A DNA stretch of 64,000 nt. Source: Coraliomargarita sp. GTDB taxonomy: Bacteria > Verrucomicrobiota > Verrucomicrobiia > Opitutales > Coraliomargaritaceae. Location: positions 2,752,001-2,816,000 of the forward strand of contig OZ244160.1 of NCBI GenBank assembly GCA_965216325.1, in the 5' to 3' direction. The notes below the pieces were generated by a model. The model was not told the DNA's origin, did not search any database, and worked only from the letters and a program-made list of their open reading frames with translations. The first letter of the stretch is position 1. Each line of letters starts with the position of its first letter. The translations under genes were made by a program, and so were the position numbers. Positions 10,929-30,930 of this stretch are shown here, in pieces.

Positions 10929-12834
10929 GTGTGCCGAGCATGCGCTCGATGTAAAAGTGGTTAAAGTCCGCTATAGTAAGAACCTAATCATAAAATGAAA
11001 GAACTATTACCAGATGCCAAGGGCGTTGTCGTGAGGCAGGGTCTGAAGGAAGGCTATGGGAAAGCTGCGAGCTGATGAACAAAAACTGCATAGAAGGCCG
11101 ACGTGGTCTGGTGAGCTGGCACCACACAGCGAAACCGCTAGGTTCAGCCACGCAGGTAAATGCAGCAGTTGTGCAGCGGAGCATCGAGTGCTTACCTCGG
11201 GAGGCCTCAGCGAGTGGCATGGGTTGGCTTAAAGGTGTCAATCAAGCCCATGCACCTGAGTCAGTAATGACACAGGCGGCACTGGTTGAGGAGTCAGCAG
11301 CGAGCATAGTAGTCATGGAACCGCGAGCCATGAGTAGGTCGATAGGCCGAAGAGCATGGAGGTCTCGAACGTGATGAAGGCTCAAACCGTATATGGGCAG
11401 TCCGACCCGCAGGCAGGTTCACCTCTCACTGGCACAGACCCGTGTCGAGAGTTGGGCGATGTTTGTGCAGGGAAGCATGGGGCTGCCGAGCAAGAACTAC
11501 TGGAGTTGATGCTGGACCGCGCTAATCTGAACGCAGCTTGGCGGCGTGTGCGCAGCAACGGTGGAGCTTCTGGCATCGACGGTATGTCGATCGAGGACTT
11601 TCTGCCGTTTGCGCGCGAGCACTGGTCGCGGATCGAGACTCAACTGAAAGAGGGAACCTACCAGCCAGCCGCGGTGCGCCGCGTCTGGATACCGAAGGAC
11701 AATGGGGAGAAGCGCCCACTGGGCATCCCCACGGTGTTGGATCGTGTGATCCAGCAAGCCATCGCTCAGGTAATTGCGCCGATCTTTGAGGCACAGTTCA
11801 GTGAGCACAGCTTCGGCTTTCGTCCAGAACGCCGAGCTCATGACGCAGTCAAGTCGATCCAAAGCGCAGCCGCCAAAGGTCACGTGTACGCGGTCGATTG
11901 TGACCTGAAGTCATTCTTCGACACGGTCGATCATCGTGAATTGATGCAGCGTCTAGCGCGCCGGATCAAAGACGGGCGCGTGTTGCGCCTGATCTACCGC
12001 TACCTGAAAGCAGGCATCCGCTTGCCCGATGGCAACACCGAGGCAACCGCCGAGGGGGTGCCACAGGGGGGACCGCTCAGTCCGCTACTGGCCAATATCA
12101 TGCTCGATGACCTCGACCATGAACTCGAACAACGCGGGCACCGTTTCGCACGCTACGCCGACGATTTTGTTATCGTCGTCCAAAGCAAGCGAGCGGCTGA
12201 GCGCGTGATGCACAGCATCAGTGGCTTCATCGAAGCGAAGCTCAAACTGATCGTGAATCGCGAGAAAACGAAGGCGGGTCGGCTGACACAGTGCAGCTTC
12301 CTCGGATTCGTGATCTCGCCCAAGCGTATCCGCTGCTTGGATACCAAACTGCACACGTTCAAGAAGACCATCCGTCAAATCACCTGTCGCAGTTGGGGCA
12401 TCTCCATGGAGGAACGCCTCGAACGTCTACGACTGTATGTGAATGGCTGGCTGGGTTACTTCGCTATCGGTGTGCCGTTCAAGGATATCCGCAGCATGGA
12501 TCAATGGCTACGAAGGCGTGTGCGCTTGTGCTACTGGAAACAGTGGCGTTTACCGCGCACGCGCTACCGCAAGCTACGCGCGCTTGGGATCAACCCGAAG
12601 ACGATTAAGCAGGCTAGTCGTTGTCGAAAAGGCTACTGGCGCTGCAGCAAACTGCGAGTGGTCAGTATCGCGATGAACAACCAATGGCTCGCCGAACAAG
12701 GCTGCCCCTCAATCAAAGAACAGTGGCTCAAACTCTGCTATCCAAACGGATAGCCCTAACGGAACCGCCGTGCTACGGAGCCGTATGGCCGGTGGTGTGG
12801 GGGCGGGAGTCAGTGATGGCTCCCGCTACCCGAT
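10929..12834 (+). mobile_element. Group IIC(-attC) intron
   Basis: 5' GTGTG; IIC-like DI motif (CAAGGGCG...TCTGAAGGAAG); DV AACCGCCG with CGC triad; DVI ending CCCGAT; removal restores TGGT|TAGCT in the attC inverse core. Confidence 0.92.
11356..12753 (+). CDS. ltrA: Group II intron reverse transcriptase/maturase (no endonuclease domain)
   Basis: GASGIDG, RPLGIPTVLDRVIQQA, FGFRP, DLKSFFD, GVPQGGPLSPLLANI, RYADD, FLGF, X domain GWLGYF. The true start may be downstream of 11356. Confidence 0.96.
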   Translation: MEVSNVMKAQTVYGQSDPQAGSPLTGTDPCRELGDVCAGKHGAAEQELLELMLDRANLNAAWRRVRSNGGASGIDGMSIEDFLPFAREHWSRIETQLKEGTYQPAAVRRVWIPKDNGEKRPLGIPTVLDRVIQQAIAQVIAPIFEAQFSEHSFGFRPERRAHDAVKSIQSAAAKGHVYAVDCDLKSFFDTVDHRELMQRLARRIKDGRVLRLIYRYLKAGIRLPDGNTEATAEGVPQGGPLSPLLANIMLDDLDHELEQRGHRFARYADDFVIVVQSKRAAERVMHSISGFIEAKLKLIVNREKTKAGRLTQCSFLGFVISPKRIRCLDTKLHTFKKTIRQITCRSWGISMEERLERLRLYVNGWLGYFAIGVPFKDIRSMDQWLRRRVRLCYWKQWRLPRTRYRKLRALGINPKTIKQASRCRKGYWRCSKLRVVSIAMNNQWLAEQGCPSIKEQWLKLCYPNG

Positions 12835-17296: not shown

Positions 17297-17343
17297 GTTA
17301 AAATTTTTTATGCGAGTTATCTTCTTCGTGTAAAGTTGTTGGG

Positions 17344-17378
17344 ACCGCGCTCTGCGTTTACGTGGGGCGCGGTTTTTT
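17344..17378 (+). terminator. Rho-independent terminator after the transporter
   Basis: ACCGCGCTCTGCG-TTTA-CGTGGGGCGCGGT followed by TTTTT. Confidence 0.7.
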
Positions 17379-17523
17379 GTGTGGAAATGAAAGTGGCTGG
17401 AGGCACCACCCCGTCTCGCATTGCGCCTTCGACGGGCTCAGGGCTGGCGAGCCACCCCTCCTCGTCAAGATGACATGGGAGGAGTTGCCAGCGGTGAGTA
17501 ATCACTAAGCTAGCACTCCAGCC

Positions 17524-18678
17524 ATGAAGAATACGAAATCACTCACTCCCACATCAGATAAACAGACTGAAGCGAAAGCGGATGTCCTCAAGCTTGGAAT
17601 CGACGTGCACAAGCGGCAATACGTTGTCGTGGCTCAGTTTGATAATCAGTCTCCGAAGACTCCACAGCGGTTTAGTCCTGAGGCATTTTTGGTTTGGATC
17701 AGCAAGCAGCGTGCCTACGCACAGCGTATTGTGACATGCTACGAAGCGGGCTGTTTCGGTTACGTGTTGCATCGGAGGTTGGAATCGATGGGCATCGAGA
17801 ACTTGGTCGTGCGTCCGCGTAACTGGGATGAGTATGGCTCGAAGGTGAAGACCGATGCCCGTGATGCGACCGAGCTTTGCAGCCATCTTGATCGTTATCT
17901 GGCGGGCAATGAGCGTGCTTTAAGTGTGGTTCGAGTTCCGAGCGAAGAACAGGAGCGTTCACGTAGTTTGAGCCGACAGCGCGACACCTTATCCAAAGAG
18001 CTCAAGCGCTTGCAGAACGTAGGAACCAGCAATGCCCGCTATTACGGTTATGAACTGAAAACAACTTGGTGGAAGCAGAACAACTTCAAGGAGTTGCTGC
18101 GTGAGTTGCCTGAGTATCTACTGGAGATCTTGCGCCCATTTCAGGCGATCTTAGCGAGCATCGATAAACAGTTCCGTGAAGTCACCGCACGCGAAGAGCG
18201 CAGAGCAAACCGCAAACTACCCGTTGGTCTGGGAGCACTCACAGCCTCGATTCTGGACAATGAGTTTCGTGACTACAGTCGCTTCAAAAACCGTGGCCAA
18301 GTCGCGAGCTATACGGGGCTGTGCCCGAGTGAATCTTCCAGTGGCGGCTCGCGCAAACAGGGTAGTATTAATAAACATGGCAATCCTCGTGTACGCCATA
18401 CTCTGATCGAGGCGATTTGGCGCTTTCTTCAGCACCAACCCGATTACGATCCGATCAAAGACTGGAGGAAGCGTATGTGCAATGAGCCCTTTAGTGCAGC
18501 TAAGAAAAAGAAAATGACTGTAGCTATCGCACGTCGATTTGCCGTGGACTGGTGGCGAATCAATACAGGGCAAATAGAGCCTGAAGCAGTCGGCTTGAAG
18601 GTGGACTATCCGAGCGCCTATGCAACGCGTGCTTTGCGTGAAGGCCGGATCGTCAAAATCCATGCGAAAGGAGCTTAA
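17524..18678 (+). CDS. IS110-family DEDD recombinase/transposase
   Basis: GIDVH, YEAG, KTDARDA (DEDD) and YTGLCPSESSSGG (catalytic Ser region), GSINKHGN. Confidence 0.95.
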   Translation: MKNTKSLTPTSDKQTEAKADVLKLGIDVHKRQYVVVAQFDNQSPKTPQRFSPEAFLVWISKQRAYAQRIVTCYEAGCFGYVLHRRLESMGIENLVVRPRNWDEYGSKVKTDARDATELCSHLDRYLAGNERALSVVRVPSEEQERSRSLSRQRDTLSKELKRLQNVGTSNARYYGYELKTTWWKQNNFKELLRELPEYLLEILRPFQAILASIDKQFREVTAREERRANRKLPVGLGALTASILDNEFRDYSRFKNRGQVASYTGLCPSESSSGGSRKQGSINKHGNPRVRHTLIEAIWRFLQHQPDYDPIKDWRKRMCNEPFSAAKKKKMTVAIARRFAVDWWRINTGQIEPEAVGLKVDYPSAYATRALREGRIVKIHAKGA

Positions 18679-18699
18679 CAACTGATTTTTATGTAATTT

Positions 18700-18880
18700 G
18701 GAACGTTGGCTTGCGCGGCTCCCCTCCTGGTTCTTTGAAGAACCGATACCAAGATTGCGCGGCCTTTGTTCCTCTTGCCGATTGAATAGATCAACTTGCA
18801 CTGCTGAGAACAGGCACGTGCGGATAGCAGGTTATGCCCGGCAGTTTGCCGAATGCATCAACAGAGGAAACGTTTCAAAT
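18700..18880 (+). ncRNA. Putative bridge/seek RNA of IS element 1 (boundaries approximate)
   Basis: CTCCCCTCCT (18719-18728) is the reverse complement of the target AGGAGGGGAG; CAAG (18750-18753) matches the left flank; ATAGCAG (18824-18830) matches the IS end. Confidence 0.8.
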
Positions 18881-19078
18881 GAATGATCTTAAAATGGGGG
18901 CTCATTGCCGCCCCCAAGCCCCCGCTAGGGGAACAGAATCGAAAGTAGATATATCCATGCATTAACAAAATTACGAAACCGCTTGACGATATCTCCCATA
19001 GCAGGAGGGGAGTTTTGGGCTCTGCGTTTACGTGGGGGTGTCCTTGCGCTGCATTGAGTTGTCTGGCTTTGCGGGCCT

Positions 19079-19155
19079 GTGCGGAGCCGGAGGCTCCTGC
19101 GCTACCTCTTGGTTGGGGGGGGGGGCGGGTGGCAATGGCGGAGCATTGCCCTCCA
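19079..19155. repeat. REP cluster (GTAG-type and TGGAG-type) with a G11 run
   Basis: 19079-19107 is identical to 14401-14429; 19131-19155 is related to 5110-5135. Confidence 0.7.
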
Positions 19156-19204
19156 TTTCTAATTTGAAGTTTTCCTCCTGTTGCATCGTTGGGATTTTTG
19201 GTTC

Positions 19205-29314: not shown

Positions 29315-29430
29315 AAGTGGCCTTGTCCACAGGGGCGATGCGTCGCGAGTCGAGCGAGCATTGTCAGGCGATTATTTGTAGATGACATGGGCGTTTATCA
29401 GGAGCACGGAAGTGCTATGATGATAAACTT

Positions 29431-30519
29431 ATGCAAAACCCCACATCATCTACACGGACAACTAAGAACGCACTGGGCACAGTAATCAAGCTTGGCATTG
29501 ACGTGCATGCGAGCACCTACGTGGTGGTCATGAAGATCGATAGCAGCGCCCCTTCACGCGCGAAGCGCATGAAGCCTGATATCTTCCTTCGATGGATTAA
29601 GCAGCTGAGCACTCAGTGCGAGCAGTTGCAAAGTTGCTACGAGGCCGGTCCTTTTGGTTACAGCCTGCACCGCAAGCTCAAGGCGATGGGCGTGAACAAC
29701 CACGTAATCCGCCCGATCAACTGGGACACTCATGGTAAGAAGGTAAAGACCGACGCGCGTGATGCGTTGCAAATGGTCTTGAGTCTGGACGGCTATCTGC
29801 GGGGCAATGACCGCAGCTTCAGTGTCGTGCGTGTGCCCAGCGAGCAAGAAGAGCGTCACCGCAGCCTAACCCGGCAGCGTGAAAGCTTCGTCAAAGAACG
29901 TGGCCGTGCGGCCAAGCGTGGTAAGAGTCTGGGACTGTATTACGATCAACCCTTACCCAGCGGCTGGTGGAAGCCGCGCAAATGGATGCAGCTACTCGAA
30001 CAGCTCGACGATTTTTTGATCAGCCTGCTGGAGCCACTGCGGTTAAACTGCCTGCACTTTAGCGAGCTAATCAGCAACATCGAAGAACGTATCGAAGCGC
30101 TCGAGCCGGAACGGGTGCTGCCTAAAGGCATGGGGGTGGTCCTCTATGAACAGATCGAACGTGAGGTCTGCAACTGGAAGCGATTCAACAACCGCAAGGC
30201 GGTCAGTTCCTTTACCGGACTGTGCCCAAGCGAAGACACTAGTGCAAATCGGCGTTTCCAGGGCTCGATCAACAAACACGGCAGTCCCCGCCTGCGGCAT
30301 ATGCTACAAGAGTGCGCCTGGTTATTGATCCGGTGGAATCCCGGCTACAGTGGGGTGCGTAAATGGCAGGCCAAGCTCAGCGACGAGACCACCAGTAAGG
30401 CGACCCGCAAGAAAATTGCCGTGGCCATCGCCCGGCAGTTCGCCGTGGACTGGTGGCGCATACGCACTGGCCAATGCAGTCTCGAAGACTTCGGACTGAT
30501 AAGCAGACAAAACCCATAA
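29431..30519 (+). CDS. IS110-family DEDD recombinase/transposase
   Basis: GIDVH, YEAG, KTDARDA, FTGLCPSEDTS, GSINKHGS; a divergent homolog of 17524-18678. Confidence 0.95.
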   Translation: MQNPTSSTRTTKNALGTVIKLGIDVHASTYVVVMKIDSSAPSRAKRMKPDIFLRWIKQLSTQCEQLQSCYEAGPFGYSLHRKLKAMGVNNHVIRPINWDTHGKKVKTDARDALQMVLSLDGYLRGNDRSFSVVRVPSEQEERHRSLTRQRESFVKERGRAAKRGKSLGLYYDQPLPSGWWKPRKWMQLLEQLDDFLISLLEPLRLNCLHFSELISNIEERIEALEPERVLPKGMGVVLYEQIEREVCNWKRFNNRKAVSSFTGLCPSEDTSANRRFQGSINKHGSPRLRHMLQECAWLLIRWNPGYSGVRKWQAKLSDETTSKATRKKIAVAIARQFAVDWWRIRTGQCSLEDFGLISRQNP

Positions 30520-30579
30520 GTCCGAACCAACGCTAAAGGCCTTCACCCTCTGATTTTAACGTTCTTTTGCAGTTTTCCT

Positions 30580-30770
30580 TTGTGCGGAGTGAGTCTGACC
30601 AAGCCCCTGTTGCCAACACAACGATTTTGTAGAATAGGCCACTTCGCCACCAAGCTTTTGAATGACCCAATGGATAGGTCATAGTGTGCTCTTCTGAGAA
30701 ACACTCAGAAACACGGATAGCAGGTTATCCCGGATCATCGAAACTCCGAGGCCATGCGCGGTGGACGCTC
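30580..30770 (+). ncRNA. Putative bridge/seek RNA of IS element 2 (boundaries approximate)
   Basis: AAGCCCCT (30601-30608) is the reverse complement of the target AGGGGCTT; TTTGTAG (30626-30632) equals the left flank; CGGATAGCAGGTTAT (30714-30728) is shared with element 1. Confidence 0.82.
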
Positions 30771-30855
30771 AAAGACGATTGCAATCAAAACAAACCACTT
30801 ATCTTATGTAAAAACACTCACACGCTTCTACACTCTTGACAGAAACGAACATAGC

Positions 30856-30930
30856 AGGGGCTTCGCTTGCGGAGCCCGCTTCTGGAAGGAGGATTCTCTG
30901 TGTGACGGGCTTCGCAAGCAAAGCTCCTGC
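30856..30930. repeat. GTAG-type REPIN interrupted by IS element 2
   Basis: (GT)AGGGGCTTCGCTTGCGGAGCCCG and inverted partner CGGGCTTCGCAAGCAAAGCTCCTGC. Confidence 0.78.

Follow-up and report, generated by a model that had tools for sequence, protein, structure and literature searches.

Two insertion sequences in a Coraliomargarita genome, each a member of the IS110 family, very probably encode a two-module bridge RNA whose donor-binding multiloop, marked by a 15-nt segment common to both, reads the right end-AG-left end (RE-AG-LE) junction. This reading is drawn from the matches of the RNA to element ends and target flanks and from their covariation in relatives. The window, i.e., the whole stretch of DNA that was analysed, comprises 64,000 nt of the forward strand of contig OZ244160.1 (Coraliomargarita sp., GCA_965216325.1; positions 2,752,001-2,816,000). 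Coordinates below are window positions, and all features of the two elements lie on the + strand. In the genome sequence used for genome counts, window positions 40001-48000 were masked as N. The window also holds a group II intron (11025-11190, +; Rfam group II intron D1-D4-3, 126.6 bits) and a complete rRNA operon (16S, two tRNAs, 23S, 5S; 39922-45159, +).

Two elements share a 15-mer and their ends

The 15-mer CGGATAGCAGGTTAT occurs exactly on the + strand at 18821-18835 in element 1 and at 30714-30728 in element 2, and no further match appeared in the window when up to two mismatches were allowed; 100 shuffles gave a mean of 0.05 matches and reached two in 1/100. No longer exact string is shared by the 3' non-coding regions of the two elements (326 and 338 nt), where the runner-up has 9 nt, and the longest common string in 300 shuffles of these regions had a mean of 8.1 nt and a maximum of 12 nt. 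The bases behind the 15-mer are GCCCGG in element 1 and CCCGG in element 2. The ATAGCAG within it recurs at 18998-19004 and 30851-30857, where it represents the right end ATAGC (the left-donor half) together with the right copy of the AG core. An earlier note on this DNA had described the segment, with the (G)CCCGG behind it, as invariant within otherwise diverged regions, and had taken ATAGCAG for the right end plus core. The exact scan and the shuffles agree with the former, the second copies at both right ends bear out the latter, and the observation of the 15-mer is thereby confirmed.

The boundaries of the elements were obtained from empty sites. For element 1, one paralogue of its site reads CCACCCCTCCTCGCCA-AG-GAGGGGAG (that is, ..CCTCGCCA-AG-GAGGGGAG); for element 2, five empty sites read cGT-AG-GGGCTTCGC or ..cGT-AG-GGGCTTCGCTTGCGGAGCCC, one of them being ..cGC-AG-GGG... 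These sites establish that the core is AG, that element 1 spans 17470-19002 (1533 bp) and that element 2 spans 29382-30855 (1474 bp), with the left core copies at 17468-17469 and 29380-29381, respectively. The ends assumed in the earlier note were thus right, the left end being ATGACATGGG, which begins with ATGAC (17470-17474 in element 1, the right-donor half), and the right end CATAGC. The circle junction of both elements would read ..CATAGC-AG-ATGACATGGG... Element 1 is present as a single copy in the genome. Element 2 is one of nine genome copies, all full length and 100% identical in a genome search, which all start with ATGACATGGG after (G/A)(T/A)AG and end with CATAGC followed by AG-GGGCTT. 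One element 2 copy of the same genome (L112, C1:2070325-2070440, - strand) has A in place of C in the 3' strand of the inner hairpin described below (38.6 versus 45.9 bits), and its left flank is AAG, not TAG. Two further genome AGATGACATGG sites were considered as solo ends and were judged by eye to be chance matches in coding sequence. Among the sequencing runs listed as containing the element, none was of RNA. In Logan contigs of four runs, the sequencing depth inside the element was ~9-10 times that of the flanks; no right end-left end joins were found among the contigs of these runs, which cannot reveal rare circles.

Element 2 targets a palindromic repeat, GGGGCTT(C/T)GCTTGCG(G/A)AGCCC, found at 30858-30880 of the window and at ~34 further genome sites. 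GTAGGGGCTT is unoccupied at 34 genome sites, and GGGCGTCGCAAGCAACGCCC, a second repeat, often follows some tens of bases further downstream. The insertion site of element 1 lies within a ~100-nt repeated unit, and CAAGGAGGGGAG was found 18 times. TGCGTTTACGTGGG occurs just twice genome-wide, at 17353-17366 (~115 nt left of element 1) and at 19023-19036 (~20 nt right of it), and the ~100-nt unit may itself be an insertion flanked by TGCGTTTACGTGGG as a direct repeat.

The transposases and the layout place both elements in the IS110 family

The transposase genes encode proteins of 384 aa (element 1, 17524-18678) and 362 aa (element 2, 29431-30519), which are 46% identical (161/353) and both match PF01548 (DEDD transposase) and PF02371 in Pfam. 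The NCBIfam model NF033542 ("IS110 family RNA-guided transposase") scored 168.6 bits for element 1 and 137.8 bits for element 2, the latter just under the cut-off of 140. A PDB search by single sequence returned no match. A profile of 14 family members matched the transposases of ISCro4 (9t56, E 3.8e-6) and IS621 (8wt6, E 3e-4); this alignment spans the C-terminal domain and places the Ser-Gly of the GLxPxxxxSG motif against ISCro4 and IS621. D27, E74, D111, D114 and S273 are invariant among the 14 relatives. Both proteins thus have the N-terminal DEDD RuvC-like domain and the C-terminal Tnp domain with the catalytic Ser that define IS110-family recombinases. The GLxPxxxxS(G/A) motif is present, and the lengths of 384 and 362 aa lie above the 330-350 aa quoted for IS1111 transposases. 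A plasmid search yielded no named close IS, its best matches being at most 34% identical.

The non-coding ends measure 54 nt (left) and 324 nt (right) in element 1 and 49 and 336 nt in element 2, so that a long non-coding region lies downstream of the transposase and the right end exceeds the left, as in the IS1111 group. Subterminal inverted repeats, which are 7-17 bp in that group, were found in both elements: in element 1, ATGGGAG (17475-17481) is partnered by CTCCCAT (18993-18999) over 7 bp, and in element 2 the repeat is imperfect (9/12 by eye). In relatives the two arms change in step, e.g., ATGAGGG/CCCTCAT. Both elements are therefore assigned to the IS110 family, and by layout, with the RNA gene downstream of the transposase, they are IS1111-like.

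The 15-mer lies unpaired in a multiloop of a conserved RNA fold

Related loci were collected by a scan of one genome per species, in which 260 were found and 77 kept. They are mostly from Verrucomicrobiota, the closest being Puniceicoccaceae/Coraliomargaritaceae assemblies. GGATAGCAGG lies within 450 nt past the stop codon in 51 of the 77 loci and GGATA-NN-AG within 1000 nt in 67; the remaining 10 are cut contigs, disrupted copies, or one locus with CAGATAGCAGG (L022). In eight loci (L073-L075, L078-L080, L086, L092) an additional conserved segment separates the stop codon from the RNA, which starts ~350-380 nt downstream.

An alignment of 50 distinct RNA regions (A3), from which the near-identical L052, L053, L054, L068, L074 and L092 had been removed beforehand, was folded with RNAalifold. 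The consensus contains 25 predicted pairs, 21 of them with compensatory changes. Its first part, the target module, is an internal loop that is closed by one stem and holds an inner hairpin. The multiloop that follows, closed by a second stem (TTCCTCT/AGAGGAA in element 1), holds another inner hairpin (P4), whose consensus pairs show compensatory changes, and a further hairpin after the 15-mer, the latter recognized by eye. GGATAGCAGG is unpaired between the two multiloop hairpins, and CGGATA..AG is nearly invariant across the 50 relatives. P4 was located at 18798-18821 in element 1 and at 30684-30714 in element 2, in keeping with the claim of the earlier note that an inner hairpin precedes the 15-mer in both. 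From conservation, namely alignment A3, the consensus fold and the single-sequence fold, the element 1 bridge RNA gene was placed at 18697-18876; that of element 2, with ends likewise inferred, was placed at 30578-30771. A G+C-rich hairpin, GGGGGC..GCCCCC, lies downstream of the element 1 RNA at 18896-18918; it is kept in L022 and is not followed by a T run.

The single-sequence fold of element 1 agrees with the consensus, and that of element 2 puts GGAUA into a local hairpin of 5 bp. This hairpin is not conserved, as its middle pairs can form in 3 and 12 of the 50 sequences, with no double change. The earlier note had named a segment fully paired in a structural stem as the finding that would speak against a donor-binding loop; the A3 consensus shows the opposite. 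Rfam 15 returned no family at the gathering threshold, nor at E up to 10 over 17300-19200, which shows only that the RNA is covered by no curated model. A covariance model of the RNA (R1), searched against 151 genomes of the phylum, matched in six, all with the same GGATAGCAGG, and thus added no new dinucleotide classes.

The upstream loop matches the target of each element on both strands

In element 1, the target loop carries CTCCCCTCCT (right-target guide, 18719-18728), the reverse complement of AG+GAGGGGAG, and CCA+AG (left-target guide, CCAAG at 18749-18753), followed by AT up to 18755. The left flank is GTCAAG at the occupied site and GCCAAG at the empty paralogue. In element 2, the corresponding strands are AAGCCCCT (30601-30608), the reverse complement of AG+GGGCTT, and TTTGT+AG (TTTGTAG at 30626-30632), which equals the commonest left flank and is followed by A (30633); these guides were checked against the nine insertions and the five empty sites. 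The strands of the loop thus match both target strands around the core, with the top-strand match 5' of the bottom-strand match, as in the IS1111 group.

The guides follow the flanks in relatives as well. For the right-target guide, GCCAAACT is found for AG|TTTGGC and CCCCGGCT for AG|CCGGGG; for the left-target guide, GTTAG is found for ..TTGTTAG| and GGTAG for ..AAGGTAG|. The counts of guide/flank identity exceed all of 10,000 shuffles. The suggestion of the earlier note that the RNA is bispecific is therefore upheld on the target side, where the guides match each element's own target and covary with its flanks.

Both strands of the donor module covary with the element ends

The 15-mer carries ATAGC+AG and one further G, equal to the first target base past the core, at 18824-18831 in element 1 and at 30717-30724 in element 2. 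ATAGCAG reads in the sense of the right end plus core and can therefore pair with the bottom strand, like the left-donor guide of IS621 (PMC11208160, in the passages cited). In the genome set, right ends were found independently of the RNA, via CTTGAC-N-CAT. In 42 of 43 loci, RNA and right end agree in all five nucleotides before the core (10,000 shuffles: mean 29.9, maximum 36), and these nucleotides fall into the classes ATAGC (most loci), ATATT (L069, L083, L084) and ATAGG (L085, L087, L088, L091, L097). The exception, L048, has the right end CATAGAAG and ATAGCAG in its RNA. The right end of L052, left out of the alignment as a near-duplicate, is mutated.

Metagenomes were scanned with the pattern CGGATA-ND-AG, 92-122 nt, CTTGAC, 8-12 nt, CATA-ND-AG, in which agreement of the two dinucleotides was not required; as neither side may have C at its second variable base, the pattern is blind to loci with GC on one side only. 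At least 116 stretches were found, of which 108, with 103 distinct sequences, were parsed among the matches listed. Among these, RNA and right end have the same dinucleotide in 100 of 103 loci (shuffles: mean 36.4, maximum 49), distributed over GA (58), AG (9), TA (9), TT (7), CA (6), TG (5), GG (5) and CG (1). Together with the genome set, nine dinucleotide classes are represented among the matches listed. Two of the three misfits listed (L141, L169) each differ by one change within the TA class, and the third (L161) is AT-rich and probably a chance match. A detectable transposase relative (25-50% identical) was present in 46 of the 108 loci listed, upstream and on the same strand in all 46; most of the other loci listed have <700 nt of DNA upstream. 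Only 13 of 100 loci listed reached E 0.01 with a narrow covariance model, which marks the metagenome loci as distant kin. A pattern scan of viral contigs gave 111 matches, none of them a relative. Since kin are not independent, the counts represent roughly ten co-change events rather than a hundred; for both TT and GG, two dissimilar RNA contexts were seen (by eye, among the matches listed), giving about ten independent co-changes. ATA and AG never vary, so the information resides in two left-donor and three to five right-donor positions only.

The 5' strand of the module consists of the five bases just 5' of P4. In element 2 these are GTCAT (30678-30682), complementary to the left end ATGAC at 5/5 positions, as the earlier note had claimed. 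Its weaker ATCAACT of element 1 was also found, at 18790-18796, of which ATCAA (18790-18794) is complementary at 3/5. Where the left end could be parsed (39 loci), the three central bases of this right-donor guide and left-end bases 2-4 form 113 of 117 Watson-Crick pairs (shuffles: mean 84.8, maximum 101). The pairings observed were TCA/TGA, ATA/TAA (2/3), TTT/AAA and GTA/TAC; in the last of these, the RNA segment was noted first and the left end AG|ATACC (L072, L089, L093) was read afterwards. Three loci (L090, L121, L176) show one mismatch each. By eye, distant relatives fit as well, with AGCAT/ATGCT (L114, L145, L157), AGGAT/ATCCT (L125) and AGTG/CACT (the L113 group). A complement of the core behind the right-donor guide, known from IS621, was considered as a family feature and rejected: CT is present in element 1 and is not conserved in relatives. 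In a metagenome contig (L115), the right end CATAAG-AG directly abuts the left end ACCATGATG.. upstream of its transposase; a distant relative is present there either as a head-to-tail tandem or as a circle junction captured by the assembly.

The strands of the donor loop thus match the RE-core-LE junction, as expected of a bridge RNA (ATAGC-AG on one side, GTCAT or ATCAA on the other). With ATAGCAG unpaired and covarying with the right end, and the 5' segment covarying with the left end, the proposal of the earlier note that this is a donor-binding loop reading the circle junction is supported by comparative sequence.

Alternative explanations of the 15-mer

The 15-mer might instead be a conserved protein-binding or folding motif that resembles the right end by descent or by accident, with the transposase reading the ends through the subterminal repeats. 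The near-invariance of CGGATA..AG would fit such a motif, as would the subterminal repeats themselves, which change in step; and end recognition has been left to the protein, with a short RNA being enough for ISEc11 (PMC11187229, in the passages cited). However, the segment varies at two bases only, and these change together with the right end, across nine classes, in the metagenome loci (100/103, among the matches listed) and in the genome loci (42/43), which a pure protein or folding motif does not predict, and the 5' strand co-changes with the left end too. We consider this explanation highly unlikely.

Less likely still is a pseudo right end acting at the DNA level, in which the internal ATAGCAG would serve alternative excision, like the extra end boxes of ISPpu9, and would not be an RNA guide. 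Any DNA that encodes a left-donor guide must have the sequence of the right end plus core, and ISPpu9 makes several circles from alternative ends (PMC12288879, in the passages cited). Nevertheless, the nine element 2 copies are all full length; the genome contains 10 internal sites and 10 true right ends, and no element ends at an internal site; and the internal site has neither the subterminal repeat (CGGAT, not CCCAT) nor a flank matching the target guide. A chance match between two diverged non-coding regions, with nothing beyond the shortness of the motif in its favour, is refuted by the shuffle counts and by the retention of the segment at the homologous place in 67/77 related loci, and its probability is negligible.

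Handshake-like bases follow the guides that would pair with the bottom strand

Beyond the guides proper, further RNA bases match the DNA. The base past the left-donor core equals the first flank base past the core in 73 of 103 metagenome loci among the matches listed (shuffles: mean 31.3, maximum 48). Sorted by RNA base, the agreement among these matches is 20/20 for C, 42/48 for G, 5/12 for A and 6/23 for T, and twelve of the T misfits listed face a top-strand C, i.e., a would-be G-U pair with the bottom strand. The next RNA base gave no signal (20/103 among the matches listed). On the target side, the two bases past the left-target core equal left-end bases 1 and 2, as does the AT of element 1, in 37/39 and 35/39 genome loci; the shuffle maxima were 34 and 35, and for the second base the observed value was reached in 1/10,000. 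The pairs seen were AT, TT, TG, AA, AC and GC. By eye, distant kin show AC for ACACT, ACGCT and ACCAG and GC for GCCAG, with L114 and, in part, L125 as misfits. In the 33 loci with both flanks, these handshake-like bases fit the non-cognate partner in 31 and 31, and the cognate one in 1, 2 and 0.

Such a pattern is the signature of the handshake guides of IS621, extra bases that match the non-cognate partner but in that element extend the top-strand guides (PMC11208158, PMC13626964, in the passages cited). We tentatively suggest, at slightly below an even chance, that the clade with a 3' RNA would carry its handshake nucleotides on the bottom-strand-pairing guides, as a mirror image of IS621. 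If these bases are functional, the bottom strand (in the sense of the transposase) would be exchanged first, which amounts to the IS621 reaction with the polarity of the sites flipped relative to the genes; such a flip would account, too, for the guides being in reverse order and for the RNA lying at the other end. Main-text passages of the literature that name both "handshake" and "IS1111" describe handshake guides for IS621 only, and the mirrored positions are the one detail here that is possibly new.

A proposed mechanism, a candidate promoter and the two elements compared

The preferred reading, a two-module bridge RNA with a donor-reading multiloop, suggests the following mechanism. Each element has a short left end, a gene for a DEDD/Ser transposase and, in the long right end, a predicted gene of ~180 nt for the bridge (seek) RNA, which would be produced and bound by the transposase. 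In the 5' module, an internal loop would read the target, its 5' strand complementing the top strand of the core and right flank and its 3' strand equalling the left flank plus core. In the 3' module, a three-way multiloop would read the donor, i.e., the RE-AG-LE junction of the excised circle. The transposase-RNA complex would grip this junction via ATAGC-AG and GTCAT and the target via the upstream loop, the RNA pairing with DNA during recombination, and the strands would be exchanged at AG. The 15-mer would then be invariant between the elements because they share the same ends, and the rest of each RNA would have diverged with its target.

A candidate junction promoter can be composed on both junctions from TTGAC(G/A) (TTGACG at 18983-18988 in element 1, TTGACA at 30836-30841 in element 2; putative -35), a spacer of 17 nt and TGACAT (17471-17476 in element 1). 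TGACAT agrees with TATAAT at 3/6 positions, and the -10 is weak. A promoter scan, whose -10 rule the candidate would itself fail, found no sigma-70-like promoter inside either linear element.

The earlier note had also raised cross-mobilisation of the two elements, and this may occur. The ends are common to both, the left-donor guides are identical, and the common left end is matched better by the element 2 RNA than by the RNA of element 1 itself. Against this, the subterminal repeats differ, the proteins have diverged to the identity given above, and each element occupies a site that its own RNA targets.

Comparison with known systems

Elements 1 and 2 are two new elements of a known kind of RNA-guided transposition, that of bridge RNAs and seekRNAs, and are otherwise ordinary insertion sequences targeting repeated palindromes of a Verrucomicrobiota genome. 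As far as the passages cited describe it, IS621, of the IS110 group, resembles them in having one RNA with target- and donor-binding modules, a 2-nt core, a circle-junction donor and a DEDD + Ser recombinase (PMC11208160, PMC11208158), and extra handshake bases that fit the non-cognate partner (PMC11208158). In contrast to what these passages report for IS621, the RNA here lies 3' of the transposase, the guide order within each loop is reversed, with the top-strand guide 5', the donor module is a multiloop rather than an internal loop, and the core is AG rather than CT. Moreover, there is here no conserved core complement at the right-donor guide, and it is the bottom-strand guides, not the top-strand ones, that are followed by handshake-like bases. 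Similarity to the IS621 protein is weak, being detected by the profile and not by a single sequence.

ISPpu9 and ISPpu10 resemble the elements in the AG dinucleotide at both junctions and in their insertion into extragenic palindromic repeats, but they belong to the IS110 group, with the RNA upstream and without subterminal repeats (PMC12288879, in the passages cited).

The closest likeness in layout is to the IS1111 group (ISEc11, ISPa11, ISKpn4), which has the downstream non-coding region, the long right and short left ends, the subterminal inverted repeats and the top-strand target match 5' of the bottom-strand match, whereas its quoted transposase length is below that of the proteins described here (330-350 versus 362-384 aa; PMC11187229, in the passages cited). 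Donor-matching nucleotides in a multiloop have been noted for IS1111-type RNAs (Durrant 2024, PMC11208160), and in the passages cited of PMC11208160 and PMC11187229 the donor loop of these elements is a prediction. For ISEc11, a short target-only seekRNA suffices for transposition, and the role of the long RNA is left unexplained in the passages cited (PMC11187229); thus, the donor loop may not be essential in every IS1111-type element. Programmable recombinases are built on bridge and seek RNAs, and the donor half of elements with a downstream RNA had until now been predicted only and, in that one study, found dispensable for ISEc11. Reprogramming would involve five bases and the core on one strand and three to five bases on the other, together with one to two handshake bases. 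With ~ten independent co-changes of guide and end over some 150 elements (the metagenome part among the matches listed), the comparative data presented here provide strong natural evidence that, in a large clade of such elements, the donor half reads the element ends.
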